Source: Kiritimatiellia bacterium (GTDB lineage Bacteria > Verrucomicrobiota > Kiritimatiellia > RFP12 > JAAYLN01). From it: 41,380 nt of DNA. The stretch is from the NCBI GenBank assembly GCA_017458965.1, contig JAFSZJ010000098.1:1-41380 (forward strand), read 5' to 3'. This document shows positions 3,219-38,700 of this stretch, one piece after another. Made by a program: the position numbers and the translations under genes. How positions within the stretch are numbered: the stretch's first letter is position 1; each line of letters begins with the position of its first letter. The notes below the pieces were generated by a model. That model did not search any database. It was not told where the DNA came from and saw nothing but the letters and a program-made list of their open reading frames with translations.

Positions 3219-4173
3219 GGGAGAAAGGTTGGGGAGTCAGGGAGTTGGGGAGTTGTGGAGCGTCCTTCACAATCCTTAGCGTCAGCGTCTGCTCCGCGTC
3301 GGGACCGAGGGCCACGAACTCGAGTTCGATATAGGGTTTTGGGGCGTCCTGCCCCGTCGTGAAGACCATTGCGCGGGATGGAGCTCCGAAAGCGCCTAGG
3401 CATCGTGCTGGAGCGGTCTGCTCTATGACAAGCCACTCGCCTGAACCGTCGGTAAGCGGCGCGGCGAGGGCGTCGCCATCGAAGTCGAGCCTTGCATCCC
3501 TCCATGCGGCGGACATGTCGAGTTCAATCCAGCCACCGCCAAGGCTTCGCGGTTCCGGGAAGCATGGCTTGCCCTTCCGATCAAGCACCATGCGTCCCTC
3601 GCCCCATAGCCGTCCTACCACCTTGGATACGAGAGGTATCTGCGTCACGGACCATACGCGGCGCGGATCGTCAATGACGGCAGAGGTCATTTTCTGACAG
3701 CTCCCAAGCGTTTCGCGCAGGATTAGCCGGTCGTCGCACAGTGTGAACTCGCGCTCAAGCGACACGGTCCAGTCACCGGAAGCATGGTCGGCGCTCCGCA
3801 GCAGGATGTTCGTCGCGTCGGCGCGGACAACCTCGAGCGGCGCGGAGTCGAACCATGCGGGGGGCGGCCAGAACGACACGGCGGACTTGTCCTTGAAGCC
3901 TTTCCAGAGCGACATCGCGCCGACCCATGTCTTTTCGCCGCCGATGTTCACCCAGCGAGGTCTTCCCGCCGCGTCAACGATATTCGTCGTTGCGTCCGGG
4001 TCTCTCCAGAGGGCGTTCGCCCCGCCCGTGCGCCCGAAGCGCATCAACCGCCCTCCGCATGAGGGCATGACCTCCGCGCGGAGCGTCCCGTTATCCAGCA
4101 CGAGCGTTCCGGCGGCAAAGGCGCCGCAACGCATCGCGAGGGTTGCCGCAAGGATTATGACTTCAGGCCTCAT
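3202..4173 (-). CDS. Secreted DUF4380/galactose-mutarotase-like protein
   Basis: Signal-peptide-like N-terminus from ATG 4173, then LDNGTLRAEVMPSCGGRLMRF, NIGGEKTW, WPPP and YIELE motifs. Confidence 0.65.
   Translation of the reverse strand: MRPEVIILAATLAMRCGAFAAGTLVLDNGTLRAEVMPSCGGRLMRFGRTGGANALWRDPDATTNIVDAAGRPRWVNIGGEKTWVGAMSLWKGFKDKSAVSFWPPPAWFDSAPLEVVRADATNILLRSADHASGDWTVSLEREFTLCDDRLILRETLGSCQKMTSAVIDDPRRVWSVTQIPLVSKVVGRLWGEGRMVLDRKGKPCFPEPRSLGGGWIELDMSAAWRDARLDFDGDALAAPLTDGSGEWLVIEQTAPARCLGAFGAPSRAMVFTTGQDAPKPYIELEFVALGPDAEQTLTLRIVKDAPQLPNSLTPQPFSHDNQN
3228..3259. repeat. Degenerate octamer array (GTTGGGGA x4), C-rich on sense strand
   Basis: Units GTTGGGGA GTCAGGGA GTTGGGGA GTTGTGGA; translated as PQLPNSLTPQP at the end of the DUF4380-like ORF, just upstream of the GH29-like ATG. 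Confidence 0.65.
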
Positions 4174-6373
4174 TAGCCGCCACGAGTTCCAGGATTGCGG
4201 AGTCGTAGTCGCGATCGCCAAGGAGGATCGGAAGTCCGACCTTCATCAGCGCCTCGCCTGTCGGAAGCAGGCCATCCGCCATCTCGGCGGTGAAGTCGGT
4301 GCATTTGCCTAGGAGCGGCGAATGCGCCCTGCGCCAGCTCTCGGTGTTGAGTTCGCGGATGCGGTAGCGCTTTGCGGGGTCAAGGCCCTGAAGCATAAGC
4401 GCAGGCGGGTAGTTCTTGCGGGCATCCCGGGAAAGACCGTAGATGCATACAATGGCGCGGTCCTTGGACTCGTCCACGAACATCAGCGCCGCATAGTCGC
4501 GCTCGAAGGGCGAGACGAGCCTGAAAAGATCCCCCTGCTGCACGACCGGGCGTATGCGGTGGTACTCCTTCACGGCGTTCTTCGCGAACTCGAGTTCGCG
4601 CGGAGTCATGTGCTTGGGCTGCATCTCGAAGCCGAATCGCCCGGAGAAGGCGACATCCACGCGGTACTTGAACGGCACGACGCGACCAGTAACGGTCACA
4701 TGGCTGGCCATCGCCTGCGCCGGATAGAACATGCTCGCGCCCCACTGCATCTTCACGCGGTCTCGAGGGTCGGTGTTGTCGGAAGTCCAGAACTCGTCGC
4801 AGTAGCGGAGCGAACCGTACTCCATGTGCCCGCCACCGGACGAGCAAGCCTGGATATCGACACCGGGGTACTTGGCCCGCTGCTTCGCAAGGACTTCATA
4901 GTAGCCCATCGCATAGTCGAAGTAGAGGTTGCCCTGATGCGCCGCGTCGAGGTATGTGGACCCGACGTTGTCGATGTTGGCGTTGGCATCCCACTTGACA
5001 TAGGCGAGGTCCTTGACGGAGCCGTAGGCGGCATCAAGCTGCCGCCAGATCTCGTCGCGGACGGCCGGGTTCGTGAAGTCGAGCACGACCTGCGATCCTC
5101 CGCGCCCAAGCCGCATTGGTCGACCATTCTCCTGAAGCGCCCATTCCGGGTGCGCCGCGAGGAGGTCGCATGCCTTCCAGTTCGCCATCTCCGGCTCGAC
5201 CCAGAACCCGAATTTAAGCCCGCGCCTCTTCGCCTCCTCGGCTAGGCCTGCGAGACCATGCGGGAGCTTGGCCTCGTTCACGCACCAATCGCCAAGGCCG
5301 CGCAGATCGTCGTCACGGGCGTTGGCGCCACGCGCGAACCATCCGTCGTCCAGCACGAACATCTCCACGCCGAGTTCCTTCGCGCCATCCATGATCTCGT
5401 GGAGCAACGGCTCGTCGAAGGACATCCCGGTGCCCTCCCAGTTGTTGAGCAGAGTCGGACGCTCCTTAGCGCCGGCTGGCATCCAGTGGCGGCGCGCCCA
5501 TCGGTGGAAGTTGCGCGACACCTGCCCCTTGCCCTTGTCGCTGAAGGTAAGCGCCGCGACTGGCAGAATGATCGACTTGCCGGGATCGAGAACATAGTCG
5601 CCAGCGACATTAGCTGGTCCTCCGGTTAGCTCAAGGAGATCGACCTCGCTCCGACGGAAGGACATCTCCCACGCGCCCGTCCAGCAAAGCGCTCCGCCGA
5701 TCACGCGGCCCTCGGTTTCGGAGGAGGGACCGCCAACGGAAAGCATGAAGGTCGGATTGTCCAGCCAGGCGTCGCGCACACCAGATCGGGAGTCGAGGAT
5801 GATGCGCCGTCCGCGCTCTATGGGCGTCTCCACGACCTCCCCCTCGGAGCACCACTCGCCCGTCAGGCTCAAAAGCCGCCAGTCGTCCGCCATCAGCGGG
5901 AAGACGAACGAGAATGAGGACATCCTGGAGATGCGCACCGCGCCAGCCTCGCCATTCGCCAGCTCGACCCATGTCTCGATGACATCCGCGTCAGGGCGCG
6001 GGCTGAAGGTCTGGATAACGCGGAAATCGTGCGCCGCGTCGCGCCAGCGAATGACGACGGCACCCTCGTCGCCATTCTCGATCTTCTCCACGATGAGGTC
6101 GAGAGTCACCGTGCCGTCGTCATGCGTGACCTTGAGCCCGCCAAAGCGGTTGAGCCCGCCGCCGGACTCGCCGAAGACCGAATAGGCCAACGGCCTTTCC
6201 ACGCCGAGTGAGCTGGGCAGCCTGTCGTGCACGGTCAGCGCCAATGCACATTCGGCGTCGGCGACCTTTACGCCGTAATGGCGTAGGTAGAGACGCTCGC
6301 CCACGCCGGAGGCTTTGCGCTCGAAAAGTAGCGCGGTGTTGGCGGTCTCGATACTCAAGAGTGAAGTGTTCAT
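4163..6373 (-). CDS. Alpha-galactosidase, GH36
   Basis: Motifs LLNNWEG, FVLDDGWF, GLGDW, FGFWVEPEM, YVKWDAN, CSSGGG and WTSDNTD. Start taken at ATG 6373 (MNTSLLSIET). Confidence 0.95.
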   Translation of the reverse strand: MNTSLLSIETANTALLFERKASGVGERLYLRHYGVKVADAECALALTVHDRLPSSLGVERPLAYSVFGESGGGLNRFGGLKVTHDDGTVTLDLIVEKIENGDEGAVVIRWRDAAHDFRVIQTFSPRPDADVIETWVELANGEAGAVRISRMSSFSFVFPLMADDWRLLSLTGEWCSEGEVVETPIERGRRIILDSRSGVRDAWLDNPTFMLSVGGPSSETEGRVIGGALCWTGAWEMSFRRSEVDLLELTGGPANVAGDYVLDPGKSIILPVAALTFSDKGKGQVSRNFHRWARRHWMPAGAKERPTLLNNWEGTGMSFDEPLLHEIMDGAKELGVEMFVLDDGWFARGANARDDDLRGLGDWCVNEAKLPHGLAGLAEEAKRRGLKFGFWVEPEMANWKACDLLAAHPEWALQENGRPMRLGRGGSQVVLDFTNPAVRDEIWRQLDAAYGSVKDLAYVKWDANANIDNVGSTYLDAAHQGNLYFDYAMGYYEVLAKQRAKYPGVDIQACSSGGGHMEYGSLRYCDEFWTSDNTDPRDRVKMQWGASMFYPAQAMASHVTVTGRVVPFKYRVDVAFSGRFGFEMQPKHMTPRELEFAKNAVKEYHRIRPVVQQGDLFRLVSPFERDYAALMFVDESKDRAIVCIYGLSRDARKNYPPALMLQGLDPAKRYRIRELNTESWRRAHSPLLGKCTDFTAEMADGLLPTGEALMKVGLPILLGDRDYDSAILELVAANEA

Positions 6374-6395
6374 GGTGGAAAGTTGGGATTGGGGT

Positions 6396-6415
6396 GTCCG
6401 CGACGGGGCGCGGAC
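6396..6415. other. GC-rich hairpin (REP-like or RNA-stabilising)
   Basis: GTCCGCG-acgggg-CGCGGAC is a perfect 7-bp inverted repeat with no U-tract. Confidence 0.35.
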
Positions 6416-6440
6416 GACAGAACTCGTATGCAAAACCGGA

Positions 6441-6552
6441 TATCCATCATCCACAATCTATTATCTGTTATCTATTATCTGCTATCTGTTATCTATTATC
6501 TGCTATCTGTTATCTGTTATCTATTATCTACTATCTGCTATCTGCTATCTGC
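6441..6552. repeat. Heptamer tandem array TATCT(G/A)(C/T), ~16 units
   Basis: TATCTGT/TATCTAT/TATCTGC units in exact 7-nt register; contains the stop codon of the FAD oxidoreductase. Confidence 0.95.
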
Positions 6553-9327
6553 CATCCCGGCCTTGCGGAGCCGTTCCGCAACGAAGGCGCGCTGCCAAGG
6601 ACGGCGGGCGCGTTTAGGGCCGACACCGTCTGGCAAGGCGTCCGTGAGGTCGCATGTCCCGTCGAGCATACGCAGAATCGCACCGCGCTCCGAAGCGCAC
6701 TTCCCCGCGAGGCGGATGGCAATATCTCCAGCGCTCCAAAGCGCCGTCATGCGGACCATGGAGCCGCGCGTCTGGTCGCATGCGATGGATGACAGCGTCC
6801 GCAGCGAAGCGCGGCCTCCGCAGAACCCCAGCGCCCAGACCGCCGCAAGGGAATGCGGCGCCTTGCCGAATGGATTGGGGTGCGTACCGTCCTCGCGATC
6901 CGCCGCCATGGCGGCAAGAACGGGTTCGACGCGCTTGTCGCCGAGCGCACCAAGGAGCAATGCAGCATCACCGGACTTTTCGCTCCCCTGCCCCACGAGC
7001 GGCCAGACGCTGTCCGCGATGCGTTTCAACCCCATGCGGTATAGAAGCCAAAGCGCAAGACCGCCATGCTCCCCGCCAATAGCGGAGACAAGGCGGCTAA
7101 CGCCATCATCCTTGGATGCGGACGCGACGAGGTCGACGCCTTCGTAAGCCCTTGGAGTCACTTCGCCGAAAATGCCAGGACCTGGCGTCCATTGCTCAAG
7201 CGCCCCGCTTGCGCGAAGCGCTTTCTGGAGCCGCTCAAGCGGCACATCTCCCGAGGCGACGCCAAGTCGGGTCGCGAGGGCAGCGGCGATGCCGGCCGCC
7301 TCCCCGATGCGCTGTATGTCGCGTTGCATCCTGAATGCGTAGGTCGTCTCCGATGTGCATCCTGCGGCCCTGCAGGCCACAAAGAGGTTGTCAATGCCCT
7401 CTGCCAGGATGGCGCGATACGGGATTTCGCAGCCAGTCGGCATTTGCCAGAGGCCGCAGCACCAGTTGTAGAAGGCGAGGTCGCGTCCCTCGGCGAAGAA
7501 GTCGCATGCGTGTCCATCGACATGGCCCGCCGTAAAGCCGATAACATCGTCGAAGGCGCGGTGTTCGACGAGATCGTCCAGCGTCAGCCGGTAGCGCGTG
7601 GCGGCAAGTGGCCCTTGCCGGATGCCTATCGCCGGCGCCATGCCGGTCGTGCGGTTGAAGGTGTTGCTCGTGCGGACGCACGAGTCCGCAACGAGTTTCC
7701 TTGTGGCCTCTATGCGGGCGGTGGTCATGTCGAGGCTGTCGGACGGATCGACATGACCGCAGTCACGGTTGTCGATGAAGAGCGTCAATTCCTGATTGGC
7801 GCCAAAACCGAAGCAACCCCATATCTGTGAGAAGGGGTTCATGGATCCGTCGCCCTCGCGACCGACTGAAAGCGGAACGCCGGCGGAAGCGGAGAGGAAT
7901 GCATCGCCTGTCGAGTCGATCCAGTTTTTGGCGGCTATGCGGACAATGCCTTTTGGCGTCGCAGCGAGTATCGATACGATGCGTCCGTCCTTGACCTCGG
8001 CCGACGACGGGATAGTACGCGACTCCAGAAGCGTCGAGACGCCGGCCTTGCCCAGAGCCATCCATGTCGCAACGAGCCGCGCAAGTCCATGATAGCCCCG
8101 TCCAACCTGTTGCTGCGTGGCGAAGAGCGGTTGGAGGCGTTTGACCTCGGCGTCTAATTCGTCCTGCATTCCACCATGGCAGCCGTGGTAATACGAAGGG
8201 ATGCCCCCGATCGAAGGGATGCCGCCGACCATCGAGCGCGCTTCAAGCGCAAGCGTTCCAGCTCCGCCAGCCGATGCCGCAACCGCAGCGAAGAGTCCGC
8301 CCGTGCCGAGACCGGCGACGCACACATCCGTCTCGATCGTGAAAAGAGGCTTTGGGTCGAGAGGACGCAGGCGCGGCGGAAGCGTGCAACGCGGGGCGTT
8401 CTCCAGCGCGGCAAAAGCGCCTTCTCCCAGGGCGTAGCGATCGCCAAGCGTCGCGGACGGCGCGGAGGAAAGAGAAGGAACGGCGATGGCGAGGTTTGCG
8501 CAGGGCGATTTCGCCGAAGCGCGACGCCGTGGATAAAGCGGATATGCGCGATAGCTCCAGTGGGAGACAAAAGCGTCTGCGCAAGTCTTGCCAAGTCGCC
8601 GCCTCAAAGCCTTGAAGACCGGCTCGACGATCCCTGCCTCGCCACCATGCATGGACCGTGGGCACTCTATGCGCAGGATCTTCTCAGACGACCAGCCGGA
8701 GGACTCGAACACTACCTTTACACCGCGCATCCCTCCATCAATCGTGAAAGGGCATTCGATTGGCCAGCGCGTCCGCTGCAGGAAGAAACGCAGGACATGA
8801 CGCGATGGCTCAACGGGTTCCTCGGCAAGGCCACAGAGGCGCGCCAGAAGACCATGCTCCGTCGCGTCGATCCAATTCGCGGCCGAGATCGCGGCAAGAC
8901 GGGAGCGTAGGGCGAATGTCACGCTACGCAAAAGGCCATTGCCCGCGATGTCGGCCGCGACTGGGGTGGCGAAGTACAGGCGCGTGACGGCTGTGGCGGC
9001 AAGAAGCTCGTTAGCAACCCACTCGGCGCTGCCGGGGTCGATCCAATCCTCCGCTATACCGGTAGCGCACCCGATCGCGTACATGAATGTGCGCATGGAG
9101 TCCGGGGTCTTGCCGGCCTCCGGACAACGGGCATGCGCGCTTTCCCAAAGCAGATCGCATTCTGGATCGATAAGGATCGTCTTCAGGCCTGCCGCCGTTG
9201 CGGCCGTAGCCGCCGCGTATCCGGCATATCCGGCTCCGACAACGGCGACATCCCAGCGCGTTGCCGAAAGAGCTTCAAGGGTTTTGCATTGATCGACCTT
9301 GGCGAGATTGGTTGTTCTGCTTTTCAT
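6538..9327 (-). CDS. FAD-dependent oxidoreductase (FAD_oxidored-like), two FAD-binding modules plus C-terminal HEAT-like repeats
   Basis: DVAVVGAGYAG...IDATEHG, then a second DVCVAGLGTGG...IDSTGDA, EIPYRAIL and IGEAAGIAAALA. C-terminal AALLLGALGDKR and AAVWALG are HEAT-like. Confidence 0.85.
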   Translation of the reverse strand: MKSRTTNLAKVDQCKTLEALSATRWDVAVVGAGYAGYAAATAATAAGLKTILIDPECDLLWESAHARCPEAGKTPDSMRTFMYAIGCATGIAEDWIDPGSAEWVANELLAATAVTRLYFATPVAADIAGNGLLRSVTFALRSRLAAISAANWIDATEHGLLARLCGLAEEPVEPSRHVLRFFLQRTRWPIECPFTIDGGMRGVKVVFESSGWSSEKILRIECPRSMHGGEAGIVEPVFKALRRRLGKTCADAFVSHWSYRAYPLYPRRRASAKSPCANLAIAVPSLSSAPSATLGDRYALGEGAFAALENAPRCTLPPRLRPLDPKPLFTIETDVCVAGLGTGGLFAAVAASAGGAGTLALEARSMVGGIPSIGGIPSYYHGCHGGMQDELDAEVKRLQPLFATQQQVGRGYHGLARLVATWMALGKAGVSTLLESRTIPSSAEVKDGRIVSILAATPKGIVRIAAKNWIDSTGDAFLSASAGVPLSVGREGDGSMNPFSQIWGCFGFGANQELTLFIDNRDCGHVDPSDSLDMTTARIEATRKLVADSCVRTSNTFNRTTGMAPAIGIRQGPLAATRYRLTLDDLVEHRAFDDVIGFTAGHVDGHACDFFAEGRDLAFYNWCCGLWQMPTGCEIPYRAILAEGIDNLFVACRAAGCTSETTYAFRMQRDIQRIGEAAGIAAALATRLGVASGDVPLERLQKALRASGALEQWTPGPGIFGEVTPRAYEGVDLVASASKDDGVSRLVSAIGGEHGGLALWLLYRMGLKRIADSVWPLVGQGSEKSGDAALLLGALGDKRVEPVLAAMAADREDGTHPNPFGKAPHSLAAVWALGFCGGRASLRTLSSIACDQTRGSMVRMTALWSAGDIAIRLAGKCASERGAILRMLDGTCDLTDALPDGVGPKRARRPWQRAFVAERLRKAGMADSR

Positions 9328-9363
9328 GATCGGCGTAGATAGGTTCTCGGATCACACAGAAAG

Positions 9364-12352: not shown

Positions 12353-13909
12353 ATGGCTGGAAGGAACACAAAAGGTGCGCGAAGGTCCGGACTGGGCAGG
12401 CTGGCAACGGTCTCGCTCGTCCTTCTCTGCGCACTCTACGCCGCCAGCCTCGTCTCCGAACTCATCTGTAACTCCAAGCCGCTGATCGTCCGAGCCAACG
12501 GACATGTGGCAATGCCGTTCCTGGCGCATGTCACCGAAGACGACTTGTTCGGAAACGGCGTCCCGAGGGAACCCGACTGGTCTGAAGTCGCCGCAACCGG
12601 ATCCGTCCACGCCATCTTCGCCCCATTACGCCATGGCCCATCGGACATCATCGACGCCGCATCGCTGGCAGGCTTCCGCCGCATACGCGCTACCATACGA
12701 CCAAAGGTCGCCTCTGGCAGGATCGATGTCCGTCCCGACATGACGGTTTCACGTTGTGAGGGTGTCGAAGCCTTCTTCCAGCGCGTTCCTGACGCAGACG
12801 AACGGATTGACGCCCTTTTCGATCATCCTGTTGGTCTTGCGGATGCCATCTCATCGCGTTTCTCCGACAGTCCGTCTGCTGCAGCGACGTTCAGGATCGG
12901 GACGCCTGGAGTGCCCGATGCTGAGATATCCCTGGCCGAATACGAGCCTAGAGGCGCCACGCCGCGTACCGTGCGGCTGCGACTCCGCTCAGGCGAAGGC
13001 GCAGCACGGACGGCCTCGATAGTCTTCGATGTCAAGGACGGAGTCCCCTACCCCATCCGCTCCTCCCGCTCCGCATTCGAACACCTTGACGAGGAGACGC
13101 GCAACACCATCCTCGCCGCCCTCTCCTCCACTCCTCCACTTTCCACTCTCCACTCTCCACTTTCCACTCCCAACTCCTCCACTCTCGAACTTTCATACGA
13201 AAGCGTGACTTGGCCATTCCGTCCGGTCCCAGGTCACCCGATGGGGATAGACGCCGCCGGACGCGATGTCTTTGCAAGGCTTCTGCACGGCACACGGACG
13301 GCGCTGACCTTCGGTATGCTCCTTGTCGCATGGGCCGTGCTGATAGGCGTGATAGCCGGCGCGATGCAAGGCTACTTCGGGGGATGGGTCGATCTCGCCG
13401 GACAGCGTTTCATCGAGATCTGGAGCGCCTTGCCGTTCCTCTATGTGATGATCCTCGTCGGTTCGGTGCTGGGGCGCAGCTTCCTGCTGCTCCTCCTTTG
13501 CTATGGCCTCTTCAACTGGATCGGCGTCTCCTACTACGCCCGGGCCGAGTTCCTTCGGCTTCGCGGACGGCCATTCGTCGATGCCGCCAGATGCCAAGGG
13601 CTTTCCACATGGCGGATCATAATGCGCCACATACTGCCGAACGCTCTGACACCTGTCATCACGCTTCTACCGTTCAACCTCGTCGGGGCGATAGCATCGA
13701 TTTCGGCGCTCGATTTCCTTGGCTTCGGTCTTCCGCCGCTGACGCCAAGCTGGGGCGAGCTGCTCCAGCAGGCGCAGCAGGACACCTCAGCCTGGTGGCT
13801 GATCCTCTACCCGTCGCTATTCCTCTTCATGACGATGCTGTTGTCGGTCTTCGTGGGCGAAGGACTCCGTGATGCCCTCGACCCGCGCCCTGACAGCCGC
13901 TATGAATGA
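12353..13909 (+). CDS. Peptide ABC transporter permease (YejE/OppC-like) with large extracytoplasmic insertion
   Basis: HPMGIDAAGRDVFARLLHG, EAA-like FVDAARCQG, RHILPNAL, PSWGELL and GEGLRDALDPR. Confidence 0.9.
   Translation: MAGRNTKGARRSGLGRLATVSLVLLCALYAASLVSELICNSKPLIVRANGHVAMPFLAHVTEDDLFGNGVPREPDWSEVAATGSVHAIFAPLRHGPSDIIDAASLAGFRRIRATIRPKVASGRIDVRPDMTVSRCEGVEAFFQRVPDADERIDALFDHPVGLADAISSRFSDSPSAAATFRIGTPGVPDAEISLAEYEPRGATPRTVRLRLRSGEGAARTASIVFDVKDGVPYPIRSSRSAFEHLDEETRNTILAALSSTPPLSTLHSPLSTPNSSTLELSYESVTWPFRPVPGHPMGIDAAGRDVFARLLHGTRTALTFGMLLVAWAVLIGVIAGAMQGYFGGWVDLAGQRFIEIWSALPFLYVMILVGSVLGRSFLLLLLCYGLFNWIGVSYYARAEFLRLRGRPFVDAARCQGLSTWRIIMRHILPNALTPVITLLPFNLVGAIASISALDFLGFGLPPLTPSWGELLQQAQQDTSAWWLILYPSLFLFMTMLLSVFVGEGLRDALDPRPDSRYE
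13121..13190. repeat. Heptamer array (CTCTCCA/CTTTCCA) in-frame inside the permease
   Basis: Encodes [22 protein letters not shown]. Confidence 0.85.
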
Positions 13910-13919: not shown

Positions 13920-15014
13920 TTAGACGTACCGTGAGCCACCTTCGCCAGAGGCTATCTGCCTGACGAGGCGCTTCAGGTCCTGCGCCTTGGATTTTGGGCA
14001 GACGAGAGTCGCGTACGGCGTCTGGACAACCACCATGTCCTCGCATCCGAGGAGTGCCAGCATGCGACCTTCGGCCGTGTTCACGACGATGCTTTCACGC
14101 GAGTCCATGGCCGCGACCTCACCAAGCGTCACGTTGCCGTCTCCGTCCGCCGGCATGTGCGCGACGATGGATGGCCACGAGCCGACATCGTCCCACCCGA
14201 ACTCGCCTTCGGCCATGATGATGTTCCGGCACTTCTCCATGACTGCGTAGTCGAGCGATATCCGCTCAAGACCCGGATAGATGGCGGCAAGTCTTGCGGC
14301 CAGGTCGTCAGTCGAAGACGCGGAGGAGGCGGATTCGATGAGTGGAAGCAACTGCGGAGCGTGTGCGGCGAAAGCCTTCCCCATCGTCGCGACGCTCCAG
14401 ATGAACATCCCGGCGTTCCAGCGGAAGCGCCCTGACTCTACATACGAGCGTGCAGTTGCCTCGTCCGGCTTCTCAACGAACCTCAGCGCCTTGCGCATGC
14501 TTGTCGAGAGCCCGAAGCCGCAATCCTCAGCGCCTTCGATATAACCGAATCCGGTCGCAGGATAGCTCGGGACAACACCGATGGTGACGATCGCGTCGGC
14601 TCTTGCCGCGACGGTGAACGAATCCGCCAGGATGCGGCGGAAGGCGGCGACATCGGCCATCAGCTGGTCGGCCGTCAGTATGGCGGCCACGCCATCAGGG
14701 TCGCGCGCCTTGACGAGACCCAGCGCGAGCGCGCAAGCCGCTGCTGTGTCACGACGCATCGGCTCCCCGATGATGTTTTCCGGCGGGACGGACGGACACG
14801 CCTCGCGCGATGGGGCGACTAGCGCATCGGCCGTGATGATCAGGATGCGATCCGGATCGACAAGACCGTCAAGCCTGTCAACCGCATGACGGATAAGCGG
14901 CTTGCCTCCGAAGATCGAGACGAACTGCTTGGGACGGCTAGATGTGCTCAATGGCCAGAAGCGTTCGCCGCTTCCCCCGGCCATGATTACTGCGAAATTA
15001 TGTGAAGTGGACAT
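13920..15014 (-). CDS. manC: Mannose-1-phosphate guanylyltransferase (ManC-type, no PMI domain)
   Basis: VIMAGGSGERFWPLS, PKQF, EPMRRDTA, RFVEKPD, WNAGMF, ISLDYAVME and WDDVGSW. Start at ATG 15014; the longer ORF is repeat-derived. Confidence 0.9.
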   Translation of the reverse strand: MSTSHNFAVIMAGGSGERFWPLSTSSRPKQFVSIFGGKPLIRHAVDRLDGLVDPDRILIITADALVAPSREACPSVPPENIIGEPMRRDTAAACALALGLVKARDPDGVAAILTADQLMADVAAFRRILADSFTVAARADAIVTIGVVPSYPATGFGYIEGAEDCGFGLSTSMRKALRFVEKPDEATARSYVESGRFRWNAGMFIWSVATMGKAFAAHAPQLLPLIESASSASSTDDLAARLAAIYPGLERISLDYAVMEKCRNIIMAEGEFGWDDVGSWPSIVAHMPADGDGNVTLGEVAAMDSRESIVVNTAEGRMLALLGCEDMVVVQTPYATLVCPKSKAQDLKRLVRQIASGEGGSRYV

Positions 15015-15115
15015 TGGAAGTTGAAAGATGAAAGATGAGAGATGAAAGATGAGAGTGGAGAGTGGAAAGTGGAGAGTGGAAAATGGAAAGTGTGAAGATG
15101 AGAGTGGAGAGAAGT
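15015..15115. repeat. Heptamer array GA(A/G)AGAT then GA(A/G)AGTG (~14 units)
   Basis: Abuts the manC ATG. The sense strand reads CTCTCCA/CTTTCCA units, then CTCTCAT/CTTTCAT units. Confidence 0.9.
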
Positions 15116-15222
15116 TGACCTTGCAGACTTTCAATACATTCTAGACATTCCTAGACTTTTGGACCTTCTAGACATTCCTAGACCTTCTTAGACTTTCTAG
15201 ACCGTCCTGGACCTTCCTAGAC
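15116..15222. repeat. 9-10 nt periodic array, core (CT)AGAC
   Basis: ctagacattc ctagacttt tggaccttc tagacattc ctagaccttc ttagactttc tagaccgtc ctggaccttc ctagac; contains the phosphoesterase stop. Confidence 0.85.
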
Positions 15223-16317: not shown

Positions 16318-18053
16318 GCGGAGGATTCTAGCACAGCGAAGGCGATAAGCAGGATTGCGCAAGGTATGCCGAGAAGCCAGTCGCCAAACCGTGTGTAGAT
16401 GGTGCGGCGCGGAACAATGGCCAGATCCCCGACGGCAAAGCCGGCGCCGGATCCGTCGCCACCGATCCGGCGGACGATTCTGCCATGGCCATCGATCAAA
16501 GCCGACACGCCACGGTTCGTTGCACGCATCATCGGCCTCCCATTCTCCACGCACCTCAACACGGCCTGCGCGAGATGCTGCTCCCCTTCTGCCGAGCCTG
16601 CGAACCAGGCGTCGTTGGCCAGCAATGCGAGAACATCCGCCCCGTTGCGGACGGAGTCGCGCGCAAGCGACGGGAAGGCGTCCTCGAAGCATATGAGCGA
16701 GCCGATCCTGAACTCGCCCCTGGGCGTGTGGATGGTGCAGACCGCCGCCGCGTCGCCGGGCTCGCAGCTGAAACCGGCAGGCGCAAGCCGCTTGAGGAAC
16801 CGGAGTTTCGATTCCAGCGGAATGAACTCCCCGAATGGGACAAGATGCCTCTTGCGGTAGGTGGCCATGATCCCCTTTGGACCGAAGAGGAACGCGGAAT
16901 TGTAGATCAGGTGCGGGTTCGGGACATCGTCATCCGGCGCGCCTCCATATTTAAGTTCAACACCGCCAGCCAGAAGCGCGGCACCGTCGAGGGCCGAAAC
17001 TGCGCCACGGACGAGGTCCGCGGCATCACGGTCATAGGGAATATATCCAGGGAGGATCGTTTCAGGCCAAACGCAGATGTCTGGCGACGCCATGGCGGCG
17101 AGTTCGGCGTGCGACAAAAGAGTCTCCGAAGTCGTATCCAACGCCTCCTCATCCTTCTCGAAGATGCTTGGCATGTCTGCGCAGACAACGGCCGCCCGCA
17201 AACGGGGGGATTCGATTTCAACGCGGCGCGACTCGCCGATCGCATCCAGTCCACGCATCCAGCAGGCCACAGTCACGCAAAGTGCGATGAATAGCTCAAG
17301 AGAGCGGACAGGCCATTTGAAGATGCGGGGAACGGGGAGGCGGGGAGATGAAAGATGAAAGTGGAAAGTGGAAAGTGGAGAGTGAAAAGTGGGAAGTGGA
17401 GAGTGGGGAGTGGAAAGTGGAGAGTGGAGGGTGGAGAGGAGACGGGAGATAGTTGAGGCGATGGAGGAGTTTATCGCTACGAGAAGTAAGGAGACCGCAC
17501 CGGCGCCAACCCAGGATGCAGGGTGGAGGAATGCGGGATTGCCGTATTGCGTCGCGGCGAGAGGGTTCCATGGGAAGCCGGTGAGAACGACGCCCCGCAG
17601 GTATTCAGATCCCACCCAGAATACTGGTTCGGCAATGAGGACCAGAAGGATGGGGATGATGGTCCAGGGGCGCTTCATGGCAAGCCGCCATGAAGCCGCA
17701 ACCGCGAATGCGAAAAGAGCCTGGAAAAGCGAGAGGAAAAGGGAAAGCGCCACATGGCCGAGGCCGACAAGCGCCACTGGTCCGCCATTGTCTTTGAGGC
17801 TCCATAGCCACGACAGGTCGATCAGCCAGAAGACGCATCCGAAAACGAACCCCAGAAACGCTGCCCTGCGCGGCGGCGCGGCGCGCACCGCAAGCAGCAT
17901 CGGCACGATGGCCACGAACGCCAGATCGCCATGCCCGAATGGCGGGAACGCCATAGCGAGCAAAACTGCCGACAAGACGGATAGGATGACGGACAGCACC
18001 TGGTTTCGCCCTATGCGTTGCGGAGGGCGTCGGCGCGGTCGGTTCGCTCCCAT
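16302..18053 (-). CDS. lnt: Apolipoprotein N-acyltransferase
   Basis: TM N-terminus and GFPWNPL; catalytic triad motifs [15 protein letters not shown] and ICFED; ANDAWF and RATNRG. Confidence 0.95.
16325..16333 (-). promoter_or_regulatory. Putative internal extended -10 (TGCTAGAAT) within lnt 3' end
   Basis: TGCTAGAAT-cctccgc-ATG, in frame with the phosphoesterase. Confidence 0.5.
17345..17437. repeat. Heptamer array (~13 units) in-frame inside lnt
   Basis: Encodes [31 protein letters not shown] between hydrophobic segments. Confidence 0.92.
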
Positions 18054-19189
18054 GGGAAACCGTCGCGGCCGAAATGACCATAAGTGGCCGTCTCGCGGTA
18101 GGACCAGCCCTGCGGCCTCATAAGACCTAGGTCACGCACGAGCATGCCTGGGCGGAAGTCGAATATGCGGCCGGACATGAGAATGTCCGCAAGGCGGTCC
18201 TCGGGGATGGAACCGGTGCCTAATGTCTGCACAGTGACGTTTATGCTCGTTGGTTCGGAGATTCCGATCGCGTAGGAGACCTGTATCTGGCACTTGTCAG
18301 CGAGACCAGCCGCCACGATGTTCTTGGCCGCGTAGCGGGCGTAGTAGGCGGCGGACCTATCGACCTTTGACGGGTCCTTGCCGGAGAACGCACCTCCACC
18401 ATGGGCAGCCATGCCGCCGTAGGTATCGACAATGATCTTGCGTCCGGTGACACCGGCATCGCCGTTCGGACCGCCGATGACGAACTTGCCGGTGGGGTTG
18501 ATGAGAAAGCGCGTGTCATCCGTGACAAGGCCCGTGGACGCCAGTTCCCCCCTGGCCACCTCTTCAAGGTCCTGCCTGATGCGCACGATATCGATGTCTT
18601 CGGTCTGATGGGAAAGGACGACTGTGGTTATTGCCGCCGGACGGCCACCATCGTACCGGATGCTCACCTGCGCCTTGGCATCAGGCCGCAGATACGGAAT
18701 CTCGCCGTTATGCCGGAGGGTGGCGCAGCGCCGCATCAGGCGGTGCGAAAAGACCAGGGCCGCAGGCATCATCTCAGGCGTCTCGTTCGTCGCGTATCCG
18801 AACATCATGCCCTGATCACCTGCCCCCTGTTCCTCCGGGCATCCGCGTTCAACTCCCATGTTGATGTCCGGTGACTGGCCATGCAGTGCGTTGATGTAGC
18901 GGAAGTCGTCGCTGGAGAACTCCTCGCCGGGGCGATCATAGCCTATGTCGCGGACAACACCTCTGGCTATCGCCTCCGTATCCACGCCATCCCACCCGGA
19001 GCAGGTGACCTCGCCTATGTTGACAACGAGATTAGGGCCAACAGCGGTCTCACACGCGACATGCGCATTCGGATCCTTGGCGATGCAGGCGTCGAGAATG
19101 GCGTCCGAAATCTGGTCGGCAACCTTGTCGGGATGGCCCTCGGACACTGATTCAGATGTGAAGATGTAGCGCGATGGGAAAGTGTTCAT
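18011..19189 (-). CDS. metK: S-adenosylmethionine synthetase
   Basis: [30 protein letters not shown] and [16 protein letters not shown]. Confidence 0.98.
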
Positions 19190-19343
19190 GGGAGATGAGA
19201 GATGAGAGATGAAAGATTAGAGATGAGAGAGAAAAGATGAGAGATGAAAGTGGAGAGTGGAAAGTGGAGAGTGGAAAGTGGAAAGTGGAGAATGGAGAGT
19301 GGAGGAGTTGGGAGTGGAGGAGTGGAAAGTGAGGAGTTGAGAG
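19190..19343. repeat. Heptamer/octamer array filling the entire trmH-metK intergenic region (~21 units)
   Basis: 154 nt from TAA to ATG made of GAGAGAT/GAAAGAT, GAAAGTG/GAGAGTG and GAGGAGTG-type units. Confidence 0.95.
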
Positions 19344-32489: not shown

Positions 32490-32500
32490 ATCACGTCCTT

Positions 32501-32551
32501 GTTGAGGAGTTGAGAAGTTGAGAAGTTGGGAAGTTGAGGAGTTGAGAGTTG
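32501..32551. repeat. Octamer array GTTGAG(A/G)A (~6 units)
   Basis: GTTGAGGA GTTGAGAA GTTGAGAA GTTGGGAA GTTGAGGA GTTGAGA. Confidence 0.88.
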
Positions 32552-32563: not shown

Positions 32564-32604
32564 CACTAGCCACTAGAACTAGCCACTAGAACTAGTGACT
32601 AGTG
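32564..32604. repeat. 6-7 nt ACTAG array (6 units)
   Basis: cACTAGc cACTAGa ACTAGc cACTAGa ACTAGtg ACTAGtg; contains the stop of the NagB-like gene. Confidence 0.8.
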
Positions 32605-33525
32605 CATTTCGACATCGCATGTGCCGATGCCGGGGCGGTAGAAGTTGAAGCGCACGTCCGGATGGTCGGCGAGAAGCGACATCGGGACGGCGGCGTCGGG
32701 GATGCGCTTGGAGATCATGTAGGCGCTCAGGCGCATGCCGAAGGGGTTGTCATGGTGGCCGGGATGCCAGATCGACACTGTCTCGGCCTTCCATGTCTCG
32801 TACGGGCCGACTGTCATCGCCTGGGAAGGAACGGACTGCACCACGCCGCCACCGGACGTGCGGGCGTTCTGGATGAGGGTCATCGGGTGGAGGTCCACGC
32901 AGCGGGTGTGGAGCTGCCGCTGCACCTCCGGCGGCGGAGGAGCGTCGACGTACGCCCCCTCGCGCTTGGGCGGGTCGTTGAAGGCCCAGTGCTTCGTCTC
33001 GCCCTGTCCGCCCTGCATGATGACGCAGCGGAAATCCTCCCAGGACTTGCGGTAGGCGGTCGTGTCGGTGTCCGGGAAATGGAGGTTCTCGTCGGGCATG
33101 CGCAGTTCGGGGCGTATGCGGTCGAAGCAAAGCTCGCGGTCGGCCTTCTGGAAGCCAAGCGGGAAGTCGCGTCCTGCCGCCTTGCCGTCAACGACCCATT
33201 CGTCCATTCCCCAGAAGTGGCAGTTGCGGAGATCGAGTCCGATCGCGTTGACTATCTGCGCCACGATCGGAAGCTGCTCGGTCGGGCCTATCGGGCCGCA
33301 GATCCCGGCAGGGCGTTCCGGCGTCGCCTTCATCCAGGCCTCGATGTATTCGAGGGCCTCGGCGGCGTAGAACTCCTGGAATGTCTCGTACAAGCGGACT
33401 GTGAACCCCGGTCGCGAGAGGGCGAGGATGTCCTTTTCCGTCAGACGCGCCGCGGCGTCGAGTATTTCACGGTCGAGAGTGGTGTAGTCCCACCAGCCTG
33501 GGGCGACTTTGCTTTGGTTGCGCAT
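32599..33525 (-). CDS. Glucosamine-6-phosphate deaminase/isomerase-like (NagB fold)
   Basis: [35 protein letters not shown] and PMSLLADHP; AGGAG upstream. Confidence 0.8.
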
Positions 33526-33548
33526 GATTGCTGTCTCCTTGTGCCAAG

Positions 33549-33597: not shown

Positions 33598-33604
33598 GTC
33601 AGCG

Positions 33605-34426: not shown

Positions 34427-34427
34427 G

Positions 34428-34743
34428 GCGGCGTCCCGCCGCGCTCTTGGAACATGTGAAATAAGCCAACTCCAACAACGACGGACAACATTTACATGCG
34501 GACCAACTCGCCCGCATGCGCCGCGCATGTTGGCGCGGCCCAAGCCAAGGTTGTCCCAAGTTGTTCATGTTGTCTTATGCCATTTTGGAGGTGCGGCGTC
34601 CCGCCGCGCACTCGGTGCATGTGTAGTAAGACAACTCCAACAACGACGGACAACATTTACATGCAAACCAACTCGTCCGCATGCGCCGCGCATGTTGGCG
34701 CGGCCCAAGTCCAAGGTTGTCCCAAGTTGTTCATGTTGTCTTA
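34428..34743. repeat. Two tandem ~150-bp copies of a REP-like palindrome plus inverted-repeat (MITE/BIME-like) element
   Basis: Copies at 34428-34577 and 34593-34743. Each starts with GCGGCGTCCCGCCGC and contains TAAG(A/C)CAAC...GTTGTCTTA. Confidence 0.9.
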
Positions 34744-34819
34744 GTCTTCATGACTTGGCGACGAACCCGGCTTTGCGCGTCGGCGTCAGCCAACCACCGC
34801 CCCATAACACCTTTTCGGC

Positions 34820-36493: not shown

Positions 36494-36504
36494 GGGCCGG
36501 GTCC

Positions 36505-38283
36505 TCACAGGGACAGCAGATCGGGGACGTGCCGCGCGAGGAAATCACGCGAAAGCTCCAGCACAGTCGCGGCGCTGCCGGACGAAAGCGCGGCATCGGC
36601 GAGCGCCTTGGCGGCCGAGAACGGCACGGCGCGGATCAACGCCTTGATCGCTGGGATGGATGTCGGGGCCATGCTCAGCGAATCGAAGCCCATGCCTACG
36701 AGTATGGCGGCTAGGCCAGGCACGGACGCCATCTCGCCGCACAGTCCCAGCGGGATCGACGCGGACTTCGCCGCGTCGGCGGCCATCTTGACGAGCCGCA
36801 GCACGGACGGATGGGCCGGCTGGTATAGATGGGCCACTAGTTCGTTCGTGCGGTCGGCGGCCATGGTGTACTGCGTCAGGTCGTTGGAGCCCACGGAGAA
36901 GAAATCGGCGCGCTTGGCCAGGAACTGTGCCGTGAGCGCGGCGGACGGCACCTCCACCATGATGCCAAGTCGCGGCGTCTTGCATTCGACGCCGTTCTCC
37001 GCGAGGTCGTTCAGGCATTCCTCCATGATCTCGCGTGTCCGGACGAGTTCGGAGATGTCCGCGACCATGGGGAGGAGGATGTTGGCCGGGGCGCCTCCTG
37101 CGCTTGCGCGCATGATGGCGCGGAGCTGCATGCGGAGGACATCCTCGTCGTGCAGCAGGTAGCGGAGGGAGCGGAGGCCAAGGAACGGGTTCTCCTCGGA
37201 CTCGCAAAGACCAGTTTCGCCGGCGAACTTGTCGCCGCCGAGATCGAACGCCCTGATGATCACAGGCCTGTCGCCCATGGCGTCGAATGCGGCGCGGTAC
37301 GCGGCGACCTGCTCATCCTCCGGCACGGGCTTGCCGGATGCCATCCAAAGATACTCCGTGCGGAAAAGTCCGATGCCTTCGGCGCCATCGTCCACAAGCG
37401 AGGATACGCCTGCGGCGCTCTCCACGTTGGCCATGACGCGGACGCGGACGCCGTCCGGCGTGACCGCCTCCCCGCCCCGCCGTTCGCGGAGGGACTCGAC
37501 GATGCTCTCGCGCATGCGGGCGAGTCCAAGCAGATGGGAGAGTTCCCTACGGCCAGGGTTGAGGACCACCACGCCGTTGCCGCCATCGACGGCGATCTGC
37601 TGTCCGGAGACCGCCTCCTGCGAGACGGTCCCGAGACCGACGACGGCGGGAATGCCGATGGCGCGCATGAGCAACGCGGCATGCGAAGTGAGGCTGCCGC
37701 GGTCGAGGACCACGGCTTTAACGACGCTCCTCGGAAGGGCTAGCGTCTCCGACGGGGTGAGGTTCTCTGCGACTACGACGCACGGGCGGTCCCAGGCACC
37801 TGGCAGCTCCTCCTTCACCCCCATCAGGTTGCGAAGAAGGCGGCGGGCCACGTCGGAGAGATCGTCGGCGCGCTCGCGGAAGAGGGCGTCGCCCGACTCC
37901 TGGAACTGGGCGATGTACTTGTTCGCCACCTCGCGGACGGCCCATTCAGCGTTGTGATGGAGGTCGAAGATCTCATGATGGAGGTCGGCGGTGATGATCT
38001 CGTCGTCGAGGACCATCATATGGCCGTCTATGATGCCGGCCTCTCCGGACGAGGCGATCTCGTCGACGCGCTCGCGTATGACCTTGAGCTGTCGGCGCGT
38101 GACCTCGCTGGCCACCGCAAGGCGCCGCCATTCATGCTCGATGGCGGAAGGGGCTATCTCGACGGCGGGGGCGTTGTAGACGCGGGAGCGATAGAGGACG
38201 GCCGTCGCCACGGCGATGCCAGGCGAGACGCCAATGCCCTGAAGGGTGCGGGATGTGGCAGTTTGTCCGTAGCTATTGCTCAT
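36505..38283 (-). CDS. ptsI: Phosphoenolpyruvate-protein phosphotransferase (PTS enzyme I)
   Basis: GIGVSPG, TSHAAL (phospho-His), GIGLFRTE, EENPFLGLR, MVEVP, SVGSNDL and LCGE. Confidence 0.96.
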   Translation of the reverse strand: MSNSYGQTATSRTLQGIGVSPGIAVATAVLYRSRVYNAPAVEIAPSAIEHEWRRLAVASEVTRRQLKVIRERVDEIASSGEAGIIDGHMMVLDDEIITADLHHEIFDLHHNAEWAVREVANKYIAQFQESGDALFRERADDLSDVARRLLRNLMGVKEELPGAWDRPCVVVAENLTPSETLALPRSVVKAVVLDRGSLTSHAALLMRAIGIPAVVGLGTVSQEAVSGQQIAVDGGNGVVVLNPGRRELSHLLGLARMRESIVESLRERRGGEAVTPDGVRVRVMANVESAAGVSSLVDDGAEGIGLFRTEYLWMASGKPVPEDEQVAAYRAAFDAMGDRPVIIRAFDLGGDKFAGETGLCESEENPFLGLRSLRYLLHDEDVLRMQLRAIMRASAGGAPANILLPMVADISELVRTREIMEECLNDLAENGVECKTPRLGIMVEVPSAALTAQFLAKRADFFSVGSNDLTQYTMAADRTNELVAHLYQPAHPSVLRLVKMAADAAKSASIPLGLCGEMASVPGLAAILVGMGFDSLSMAPTSIPAIKALIRAVPFSAAKALADAALSSGSAATVLELSRDFLARHVPDLLSL

Positions 38284-38569
38284 CTGGGATGTCGAACTTG
38301 CGCTTGACGAGGGCTTCCAATTCATCAAGGACCGCCGCCGCCTCCGGACCTGAGGCGCGGACCGTAAGCGTCGATCCGCACACTGCCTCAAGCGTCATGA
38401 GAGCCATGATGCTCTTGCCGGAGACGATGTTGCCATCGCCGTCCTTCTCGACGGTCACGTCAGCCTTGAAGCGCGACGACGTCTTGGCGAAAAGACCTGC
38501 CGGACGCACATGCATGCCGTACCTGTTGAGCAGGACCATGTCGCGTGAAATAGTCTCTGAAGTCGCCAT
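38273..38569 (-). CDS. ptsH: Phosphocarrier protein HPr
   Basis: GMHVRPA (His15) and GKSIM (Ser46). Confidence 0.95.
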   Translation of the reverse strand: MATSETISRDMVLLNRYGMHVRPAGLFAKTSSRFKADVTVEKDGDGNIVSGKSIMALMTLEAVCGSTLTVRASGPEAAAVLDELEALVKRKFDIPDEQ

Positions 38570-38700
38570 TTTGAGTTCCTGGTTGGGAAGTTGGGGGTTG
38601 CTAAGTTCCTGTTTCTGGTAACTAAGTTCCAATGTCCCGCGTTGCGAAGTTTCGAGTTCCTGATTGCGAAGTTACGGGTTCCTGGTTCAGAGTTGGCAGT
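38570..38700. repeat. Highly degenerate 7-8 nt periodic array (sense AAC-N4/5), filling the hprK-ptsH junction
   Basis: Sense: ACTGCCA ACTCTGA ACCAGGA ACCCGTA ACTTCGCA ATCAGGA ACTCGAA ACTTCGCA ... ACCCCCA ACTTCCCA ACCAGGA ACTCAAA ATG. Confidence 0.7.

Follow-up and report, generated by a model that had tools for sequence, protein, structure and literature searches.

Introduction

Where do the short tandem arrays at the gene junctions of a gut bacterium come from, and what decides which of their two strands is read as sense? This question is raised by contig JAFSZJ010000098.1 of assembly GCA_017458965.1, a Kiritimatiellae gut metagenome-assembled genome (MAG) of 1.75 Mb in 122 contigs (completeness 63%, contamination 1.2%). 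The window analyzed here is the entire contig of 41.4 kb (C52 in our numbering). A first-pass annotation made from its letters alone had described 11 degenerate arrays with periods of 7–10 nt, and had proposed that an active, polarity-aware process deposits them or that they are the scars of a cassette-type mobile system.

We followed these arrays through the whole MAG, through 150 other genomes of its order, including 13 of the same family, and through metagenome contigs. The arrays occur genome-wide and are oriented by a geometric rule that is tied to the nearest end of a coding sequence (CDS). They are probably heptamer long simple sequence repeats (LSSRs), similar to the short tandemly repeated repetitive (STRR) sequences of cyanobacteria, that grew by slippage and were sorted by strand through selection on mRNA signals.

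The MAG is the sole member of its genus among the genomes compared. Its MetK is nearest to that of "Kiritimatiellae bacterium" MAGs, with 67% for named records and at most 72% among the compared relatives, and near-identical sequence is present in animal-gut metagenomes from at least 10 studies.

Results

The arrays are abundant throughout the genome and have periods of mostly 7 or 8 nt

Genes were called with a 3-periodic Markov model trained on long open reading frames (ORFs), which yielded 1242 genes that account for 86.8% of the assembly; strands and stops of these calls are reliable, and start codons are approximate. Arrays were defined by merging the rows of Tandem Repeats Finder (TRF) that had a period of 6–11 nt and at least three copies. 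For the whole MAG, TRF returned 1032 rows, with 218 of period 7, 96 of period 8, and 98 of period 9, compared to 5 of period 6 and 20 of period 10. The 338 merged arrays sum up to 19.3 kb, which corresponds to 1.1% of the assembly and 6.7% of the non-coding DNA, and they have a median length of 44 nt, with 38 arrays of at least 100 nt. Period 7 dominates (182 arrays), followed by periods 8 (91) and 9 (53), and periods 6, 10, and 11 are represented by 3, 8, and 1 arrays, respectively. A shuffle that kept the local composition left 5 TRF rows of period 6–11 with at least three copies, versus 389 in the real sequence. The arrays of the window thus belong to a genome-wide and non-random population.

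At least one array was found in 158 of 1120 gene junctions. Co-directional junctions (834) contain 145 arrays, convergent junctions (141) contain 48, and divergent junctions (145) contain 29; the remaining arrays lie within called ORFs (60) or at contig edges (56). The earlier view that no array lies in a divergent promoter region therefore applies to the four short divergent junctions of the window and not to the genome, and the lack of arrays in these junctions is a small-sample effect. As arrays occupy contig ends in 19 of 244 cases, their true number is probably higher. Some junctions consist of nothing but array from stop codon to ATG, namely the spoU–metK junction of the window (19190–19343) and junctions at C45:5969, C90:22435, and C6:1083. 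Proximity to start codons is modest, with 73 of 225 arrays within 20 nt compared to 151 of 619 random intergenic points, and we therefore rejected as a general rule that arrays abut start codons.

The 338 arrays comprise 133 canonical units, and several families indeed share a period of 7 or 8 nt, as had been described for the window. The largest groups are AGATARY (AACAGAT with 28, AATAGAT with 16, and others), the octamers CAACCYTT / AACCCTTC, AATGCAC, and CTYTCCA / CTYTCAT. The units AACAGAT, AATAGAT, and AGATAGC together occupy 49 loci.

The orientation of the arrays depends on the nearest CDS end

A crude comparison of the purine or pyrimidine strand with the gene strand showed no bias (24 R and 25 Y for plus-strand genes at co-directional junctions), and the polarity is visible only per family or by position. 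When orientation relative to the flanking genes was evaluated per family, the majority sum was 173 of 205, compared to a null expectation of 155.2 ± 3.9, and none of 5000 simulations reached the observed value. The positional analysis was based on the strongly G/C-skewed arrays. Read 5'→3', their G-rich strand points away from the closest CDS end in 60 versus 17 cases at co-directional, 15 versus 1 at convergent, and 8 versus 3 at divergent junctions. Importantly, the convergent junctions obey this rule although they had not been used to derive it. At co-directional junctions, sense-G-rich arrays were located by the stop codon in 28 of 34 cases (median distance 6 nt) and sense-G-poor arrays by the start codon in 32 of 43 cases (median 12 nt; Fisher p = 8.1e-7). 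Sorted by gene end, 43 of 55 arrays on the trailer side were sense-G-rich, and 40 of 49 arrays on the leader side were sense-G-poor. The CAACCYTT family even flips with position, as it reads CAACCYTT before starts and AAGGGTTG after stops.

The orientation rule is therefore a geometric one that refers to the closest CDS end and holds across many unit families. Polarity as such had been recognized correctly in the first-pass annotation, but not in the form given there, according to which the pyrimidine strand is always sense: this applies to the C/T-rich arrays of the window, to leaders, and to arrays inside ORFs, but is reversed in trailers. With the contig-majority direction as a proxy for replication, a comparison with transcription gave 5 versus 6 and 7 versus 4, which are small counts. 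As transcription and CDS boundary make the same predictions, the data do not tell which of the two sets the rule.

Leader arrays are G-poor and mostly lack Shine-Dalgarno motifs

The MAG uses Shine-Dalgarno (SD) sequences, as seen from the 391 genes that have a unique ATG and no array: an SD-like 4-mer precedes 186 of them, versus 55 at control positions. As the G-rich strand points away from CDS ends, array leaders are G-poor, with 13–15% G throughout positions −60 to −1, and mostly have no SD: the motif was found in 9 of 41 array leaders (p = 0.0016 in comparison to the array-free genes). Start-proximal arrays contain 2.6 start codons per 100 nt on the sense strand versus 7.5 on the antisense strand, and array leaders are nearly unstructured (−0.068 versus −0.251 kcal/mol per nt in array-free leaders). 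The leader of the metK gene is pure array with 0% G in positions −45 to −1 and without an SD motif, whereas the metK leaders of 19 relatives are non-repetitive, contain 9–38% G, and have an SD-like motif in 7 cases.

Trailer arrays follow stops and, in one family, hairpins

In 43 of 82 stop-side arrays, each of the three sense frames contains stop codons, versus 20 on the antisense strand. As stop-richness did not discriminate trailer arrays from the antisense strands of leader arrays (36/43 versus 28/40, p = 0.19), we rejected it as a feature that is selected in trailers.

AGATARY arrays are located after the 3' ends of genes. A perfect GC-rich stem of at least 7 bp adjoins them on the 5' side in 16 of 51 cases and on the 3' side in none of the 51, compared to 27 of 2000 random intergenic points, and these stems differ from locus to locus. 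Scanning 1158 gene 3' ends yielded 148 GC-rich perfect hairpins, of which 3 were followed by a T-tract and 11 by an AGATARY array. Canonical terminators consisting of a hairpin and a T-tract are rare in this MAG, and the majority of hairpins are not followed by any tract. Rho is encoded.

Ten loci share a module of the order (AGATARY)n – GATATGAGTTTT – hairpin GTCCGCG..CGCGGAC – G-poor array – ATG, of which the window copy spans 6374–6552. With at most 4 substitutions allowed, this box hairpin matched 11 times in the MAG, 10 times in the same module order. A comparison with the other 150 genomes of the order showed that the box is specific to the MAG, with 10 matches there and a single match, with one mismatch, elsewhere (G136). 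When the module RNA was folded, only the hairpins formed, with the box as a stable stem, and the RNA was otherwise less structured than its shuffles (z = +1.87). The window had 0 Rfam matches at the gathering threshold. A sigma-70 scan of 6300–6650 detected two matches within the array, both at consensus level, and found no T-tract terminator, a result that we treated as no evidence. In composite arrays, the order of units is conserved, with CCA-type before CAT-type units in a ratio of 7:1.

This anatomy could mean that the arrays are adaptive expression modules, which we regard as possible but rather doubtful. G-less leaders would then be standby or S1-type pads for SD-independent initiation, a GC hairpin followed by an AT-rich, stop-rich AGATARY array would terminate or insulate the upstream gene, the box hairpin would mark a promoter, a 5' end, or a processing site, and copy number would tune expression. 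Such modules would agree with the recurrent grammar of stop, hairpin, (AGATARY)n, box hairpin, G-poor array, and ATG at the 10 box loci, which is also found in many of the 45 junctions that we inspected (51 met the filter). They would also agree with the pure-array leader of the essential metK gene, with the fact that array leaders form a distinct class in a genome that uses SD sequences, with AGATARY arrays behind hairpins being more frequent than T-tracts, with the unstructured module RNA, and with the recurrence of ATG-abutting G-poor arrays made of other units in a genome of the same family (see below). A translational role has been proposed for TAACTGA repeats (PMC4679880) and speculated for the heptamers of Nostoc (bioRxiv 10.1101/2022.06.06.494920). 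However, these published roles are themselves speculative, the genome-wide proximity to starts is modest, the promoter matches are at consensus level, and Rfam gave no match. The contigs of a metatranscriptome (X20) were short and located inside genes, with none across an array, and are thus silent on array transcription. Moreover, the units are lineage-specific and arrays are missing from the orthologous junctions in other genera, so that no conserved function is required.

Arrays inside ORFs are read on their G-poor strand

Called ORFs contain 31 low-GC arrays, 26 of them internal, which encode repeats rich in S, T, L, P, N, and Q. The sense strand of in-ORF arrays is G-poor in 27 of 28 cases, and arrays of the stop type were found 0 times in sense and 16 times in antisense. 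As a G-less strand permits only TAA as a stop codon, this strand bias follows from stop avoidance. Some array-bearing ORFs may be fusions by the gene caller across stop-free arrays, and the comparison with orthologs covers the two internal cases of the window. In Lnt, the array adds about 22 aa to the variable linker between LNT_N and CN_hydrolase in comparison with 11 of 11 orthologs, and the matches of relatives split at residues ~208/246. In the ABC permease (array 13121..13190), the alignment with 11 orthologs showed a non-conserved segment of similar length.

The octamer array at 3228..3260 is read through by the last codons of the DUF4380 (Pfam) ORF 3202–4221, which ends with ...APQLPNSLTPQPFSHDNQN*. 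This ORF ends 17 nt inside the next gene, and its last ~20 residues are either array-encoded or a calling artefact. As it reads through a stop-free octamer array, it shows how G-poor arrays extend ORFs.

Array lengths differ between strains by whole units

Strain comparisons were based on metagenome contigs, not reads, from three independent DNA studies (X2, X9, and X10), and parts of the window that had no contig cover at arrays carry no evidential weight. Where the flanking genes were ~98–99% identical, array lengths differed in whole-unit steps; length variation between strains as such is in line with the first-pass annotation. The X2 contig has no counterpart of 56 nt (8 heptamers) at 15037–15094, the X2 and X10 contigs lack 27 nt at 15135, and the X9 contig shows 14 gaps across 19190–19255. 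Most metagenome contigs break at arrays. In all three DNA metagenomes, the summed contig depth in the depth bins 6402–6968 and 18876–19442 rises 5- to 35-fold over the arrays. Many contigs in these samples share the array units, and they come from other loci and perhaps from other organisms.

As it was in principle conceivable that the arrays are mis-assembled low-complexity reads or a product of binning, we weighed this explanation as well. The contig ends that lie in arrays, and the contigs of the Logan collection, which mostly stop at arrays, would agree with it. However, contigs of X2, X9, and X10 bridge or enter arrays that are in place between the same genes, the arrays are degenerate and not perfect, and arrays in frame keep long ORFs open. 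An artefact is thus very improbable.

The unit families are lineage-specific

The AGATARY pattern matched 238 times in the MAG, and in the other genomes of the order it was found only in G028 (19 matches) and G074 (1 match), with none in the 13 genomes of the same family. For arrays in general, 18–80 kb were sampled per relative. This sampling revealed 14 arrays in 56 kb of G030, with units of its own, 4 in G028, 2 in G009, and 1 each in G018 and G007, and none in the sampled stretches of G019, G022, G025, and G003. In contig C110 of G009, which belongs to the same family as the MAG, G-poor octamers (CACACTYY)n at 3860 and 15560 end 2–5 nt before ATGs. G030, from another family, contains in its contigs C2 and C3 a dispersed mosaic of the order GC hairpin – (CCGTTCT)n – GC hairpin, as well as a second repeat, (TCCAAGCT/TCCAAACT)n, whose flanks are conserved. 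G028, also from another family of the order, shares the heptamer AGATAAC with the MAG, for which convergence or transfer are possible explanations. The arrays of G009 and G030 indicate that the period of 7–8 nt and the anatomy recur, while the sequences do not. Judged by these comparisons, the arrays appear to be young, and their unit families are specific to lineages.

No sign of mobile cassettes, and a possible direction-aware process

If the arrays were left by a cassette-type mobile system, array-flanked cargo genes would be expected. Genes with arrays in both junctions were not in excess (17 versus 20.0 expected, p = 0.51), arrays within 60 nt of both ends were found for 2 of 1242 genes, with array pairs that were unrelated, and neither conserved flanks nor target duplications were seen around the 49 AGATARY arrays inspected, the optional box module aside. 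The cassette and cargo interpretation found no support in these data, and we rejected it.

The search for trans-acting enzymes was restricted to the families RVT_1 and Y1_Tnp. No RVT_1 reverse transcriptase was found in the MAG, which is 63% complete. The Y1/HUH transposase family PF01797 had 2 matches in the MAG, at C42:7033–7224 and C13:25976–26254 (in ORFs of 325 and 347 aa), and 33, 22, 15, and 0 matches in G003, G028, G009, and G030, respectively. Across 9 relatives, the number of Y1 transposase copies does not track array richness, as the array-rich G030 has no match and G003 with its 33 matches has no array in the 37 kb sampled. Loss of mismatch repair was rejected as a cause, since long open frames encode both MutS_I and MutL_C, and MutS and MutL are thus intact.

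A dedicated direction-aware DNA process that lays down or extends the arrays, so that their G-rich strands would be its footprint and not a product of selection, comes close to the first proposal for the window. Candidates would be synthesis by repair or polymerase enzymes at stalled forks or hairpin feet, 3'-end extension at breaks, or a nuclease or transposase acting in trans. A process of this kind would account for a geometric rule that is equally strong at the 5' and 3' ends of genes and holds in convergent junctions, for the start of AGATARY arrays at the 3' foot, and never on the other side, of hairpins unrelated to one another, for the hairpin–(CCGTTCT)n–hairpin mosaics of G030, for families and a composite order common to many loci, and for the recurrence of period 7–8 with different units in different lineages. 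We nevertheless consider it unlikely, because the enzymes searched for are either not found or do not co-vary with the arrays, MutS and MutL are intact, doubly flanked genes are not enriched, conserved flanks and target duplications are not in evidence, and strain differences are simple gains or losses of units. In addition, the bipartite junctions that we recognized by eye among the 45 inspected mostly combine two different families, which counts against two-sided end extension, as this would predict one unit in inverted form. In a specific version, which we judge to be quite unlikely, an enzyme common to array-rich lineages would synthesize arrays outward from CDS boundaries or hairpin feet with a telomere-like polarity, so that the G-rich strand would always extend 5'→3' toward the intergenic side. 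If this were true, G-less leaders and trailers of hairpin and array would have been co-opted as signals for SD-independent initiation and termination.

The arrays and neighboring features of the window

TRF called 9 of the 11 arrays of the window where they had been described (Table 1). The other two are weaker: the 22-nt G-poor stretch at 6374–6395 was not called, and the stretch at 38570–38700 is mostly degenerate. Without exception, the arrays are located between co-directional genes or within ORFs (13121 and 17345, and 3228 in last codons), as had been noted. The arrays are AT-richer than their surroundings (GC 0.31–0.59, compared to 0.62 for the window), and TRF detected higher-order periods of 14, 21, and 28–29 nt inside them, which are to be expected from block duplication.

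Table 1. Arrays and adjoining hairpins in the 41.4-kb window, with the genes they border or interrupt (gene assignments by Pfam).
Feature	Position	Strand	Details and context
Octamer array, sense G-poor	3228..3260	-	TRF period 8, 4.1 copies; 9 nt upstream of ATG 3218 (ORF 1668-3218)
Short G-poor leader stretch	6374..6395	-	Abuts ATG 6373 of GH36 alpha-galactosidase gene 4163-6373 (Melibiase/GH36)
Conserved box hairpin GTCCGCG...CGCGGAC	6395..6418	-	Between AGATARY array and G-poor leader; 1 of 10 module copies
Heptamer array, AGATARY on sense	6441..6552	-	TRF 6456-6551, period 7, 13.7 copies; stops in all three sense frames; stop of FAD-oxidoreductase ORF 6538-9327 falls within its first units (C-terminus ...KAGMADSR*)
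GC hairpin TTGCGGA-loop-TCCGCAA	6563..6581	-	~10 nt upstream (sense direction) of AGATARY array
Heptamer array, CTCCACT type	13121..13190	+	In frame in YejE/OppC-type ABC permease ORF 12353-13909 (BPD_transp_1); TRF 13126-13186, period 7
Composite G-poor heptamer leader, (CTYTCCA)n then (CTYTCAT)n	15015..15115	-	TRF 15018-15111, periods 7/14/21; abuts ATG 15014 of mannose-1-P guanylyltransferase-like gene 13920-15014
9-10-nt trailer array, GTCTAGRAAG type, TAG per unit	15116..15222	-	TRF 15125-15223, periods 9/10/29; begins at stop of ORF 15217-16692 (Metallophos)
Heptamer array in frame in Lnt	17345..17437	-	ORF 16302-18053; TRF 17357-17438, periods 7/14/21
Heptamer array filling a whole junction	19190..19343	-	From SpoU-methylase stop (19344-19346) to MetK ATG (19189); TRF 19188-19344, periods 7/21
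Octamer G-poor leader, CAACTYCT type	32501..32551	-	TRF period 8, 6.5 copies; 11 nt upstream of ATG 32489 of PIG-L deacetylase gene; AAGGA between array and ATG
CTAG-rich 6-7-nt trailer array	32564..32604	-	TRF 32565-32595, period 13 (= 6+7), 2.4 copies; starts at stop (TAG) of ORF 32599-33525
Degenerate G-poor GGAAC/GAAAC-type stretch	38570..38700	-	TRF: only 22-nt x2 repeat at 38642-38684; fills junction from hprK stop (38701) to ptsH ATG (38569) (Hpr_kinase, PTS-HPr)

The genes of the window are ordinary housekeeping genes and genes for the use of glycans, with Pfam assignments to GH36, GH9, GH39, ABC transporters, Lnt, MetK, SpoU, and HprK-HPr-PtsI; the row hprK–ptsH–ptsI (HPr kinase, HPr, and enzyme I) lies at 38273–39693 and 36505–38391. 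A further repeat of the window, located after mlaE in a convergent junction, is a 165-nt tandem duplication at 34428–34743 with 1.9 copies and 92% matches. Within this duplication lies a palindrome similar to repetitive extragenic palindromic (REP) elements, GGAGGTGCGGCGTCCCGCCGCGCA (copy 34587–34611), which has at least 33 intergenic copies in the MAG, sometimes in tandem (C61:7716), and is not part of the arrays. The two Y1/HUH ORFs of the MAG might relate to such REP-like palindromes.

Discussion

How the arrays may arise and how their strand may be set

The explanation that we favor with moderate confidence is that of LSSR-type arrays that grow by slippage and are sorted by selection. Tandem units of 7, 8, or 9 nt would arise in intergenic DNA and change their length by replication slippage or unequal recombination. 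The strand of an array would not be set at its deposition but would be sorted later by what the mRNA tolerates at each gene end. By a start codon, only arrays with a G-poor sense strand would survive, as these contain no AUG, GUG, or UUG, no SD-like GGAG, and almost no structure; by a stop codon, the C-poor, stop-codon-rich strand would survive as sense; and in ORFs, only the stop-free G-poor strand would persist, coding for linkers rich in S, T, L, and P. Such selection is plausible for leaders, since a G-rich array before a start codon would be full of GGAG and GUG or AUG. The whole-unit insertions and deletions, the higher-order periods, and the apparent youth and lineage specificity of the arrays would fit slippage or unequal exchange. 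We thus infer slippage as the generator and selection as the sorter, with some exchange between loci behind the shared families.

Several points weigh against this explanation. Its main weakness is that selective sorting explains leaders and ORFs well but trailers less well: the trailer bias (43/55) is as strong as the leader bias (40/49), for which a symmetric mechanism would be more economical, and stop-richness fails to separate trailers from antisense leaders. Slippage in situ alone would leave unexplained why families recur (133 units in 338 arrays, and 49 loci for the AGATARY-type units), why the composite order of CCA- before CAT-type units is conserved, and why the 3' foot of hairpins that are unrelated to one another is where AGATARY arrays start (16/51 versus 27/2000). 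Exchange between loci or a directed process would be needed for these three features. It also has to be considered that the gene calls come from a home-made Markov model with approximate start codons, and that the evidence from strains consists of contigs and not of reads.

Significance of the arrays

Heptamer arrays have been known since the work on STRR sequences and have counted as the most common class of long simple sequence repeats since 2007 (according to PMC4679880 and PMC4692102). The case presented here overturns nothing, but it offers a dense system, sampled in natural populations, for asking whether a mechanism or selection sets polarity. It extends the orientation bias that was described for single units in Xanthomonas and Nostoc to a general geometric rule across families, it links, in a genome nearly devoid of T-tract terminators, one family, AGATARY, to the 3' foot of hairpins, and it shows pure G-less array leaders without SD motifs in front of essential genes, metK among them. 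As the organism is present in many public gut metagenomes, the birth, growth, and orientation of arrays could be tracked in natural populations, which would bear on this question. In practical terms, the arrays fragment short-read MAGs, and they cause errors in gene calling, since ORFs become extended or fused across arrays without stop codons.

Comparison with known repeat systems

A narrow literature search found no report of tandem repeats in Kiritimatiellae. The kind of array and its orientation bias have already been published for Xanthomonas, Nostoc, and Beggiatoaceae, and the units described here are new. Tandem copies, even two, of TAACTGA, GGGAATC, GGGGACT, and GGGGATT were not found in the MAG, nor was any tandem copy of three STRR heptamer units.

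LSSRs have units of 5–11 nt, among which heptanucleotides are the most common, and slippage has been proposed as their origin; they are described as sporadic, lineage-specific, mostly intergenic, and favoring genomes of high GC content (Mrazek 2007, as cited in PMC4679880 and PMC4692102). The MAG resembles this class in its tandem units of 5–11 nt beyond what composition predicts, in the dominance of period 7, and in the strain-variable copy number, and its period spectrum is that reported for LSSR-rich bacteria in these two articles. It differs in that its host is a gut bacterium of the Planctomycetes–Verrucomicrobia–Chlamydiae (PVC) group, many co-existing families follow a set order along the junctions, which in some cases consist entirely of array, and arrays with period 7 or 8 lie in frame within ORFs.

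The closest precedent for the orientation is provided by the heptamers GGGAATC and GGGGA(C/T)T of Xanthomonas and Nostoc, which are over-represented in non-coding DNA (Rehm et al. 2015, PMC4692102). According to this report, these repeats have their G-rich strand in antisense immediately upstream of ORFs and in sense directly behind stop codons, their length and sequence vary between close relatives, and the adjoining genes belong to all functional classes. The sense-G-poor leaders and sense-G-rich trailers of the MAG, at median distances of 12 and 6 nt, follow the same pattern. However, the arrays of the MAG are not depleted in divergent junctions (29/145, compared to 145/834 in co-directional ones), its rule spans many families that flip with position, and the published units are not tandem. 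As the units of the MAG seldom contain GGG tracts, G-quadruplexes do not appear to be an obvious driver.

TAACTGA repeats occur in marine Beggiatoaceae, some Cyanobacteria, and Bacteroidetes in sets of 2–6 copies, and it was reported that SD motifs are rare there, that the downstream genes belong to all classes, that some repeats are located in ORFs, and that a role in translation was proposed (MacGregor 2015, PMC4679880). The arrays of the MAG are likewise found directly upstream of starts (median 12 nt) and are poor in SD-like motifs (9/41 versus 186/391), but they are built from dozens of units with up to ~30 copies, TAACTGA itself is absent in two or three copies, and a stop-side class and hairpin-associated arrays are added.

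The Borgs, which are archaeal extrachromosomal elements, contain pervasive, fast-evolving, and recent tandem repeats, both intergenic and in ORFs, where perfect amino acid repeats are under strong selection (Schoelmerich et al. 2023, PMC9879509). In both systems, in-ORF arrays add low-complexity peptide repeats. Those of the MAG are degenerate, and as their units have 7–8 nt, they generate a peptide period of 7–8 aa over three units, unlike those of the Borgs.

For the STRR sequences of heterocystous cyanobacteria, three heptanucleotides were described in Calothrix PCC 7601 (cited in PMC4692102). The likeness to them that the first-pass annotation had pointed out is apt, as the MAG also has several families of tandem heptanucleotides dispersed in the intergenic DNA of one genome, in this case in a host that belongs to the Kiritimatiellae by its best MetK matches and not to the cyanobacteria.

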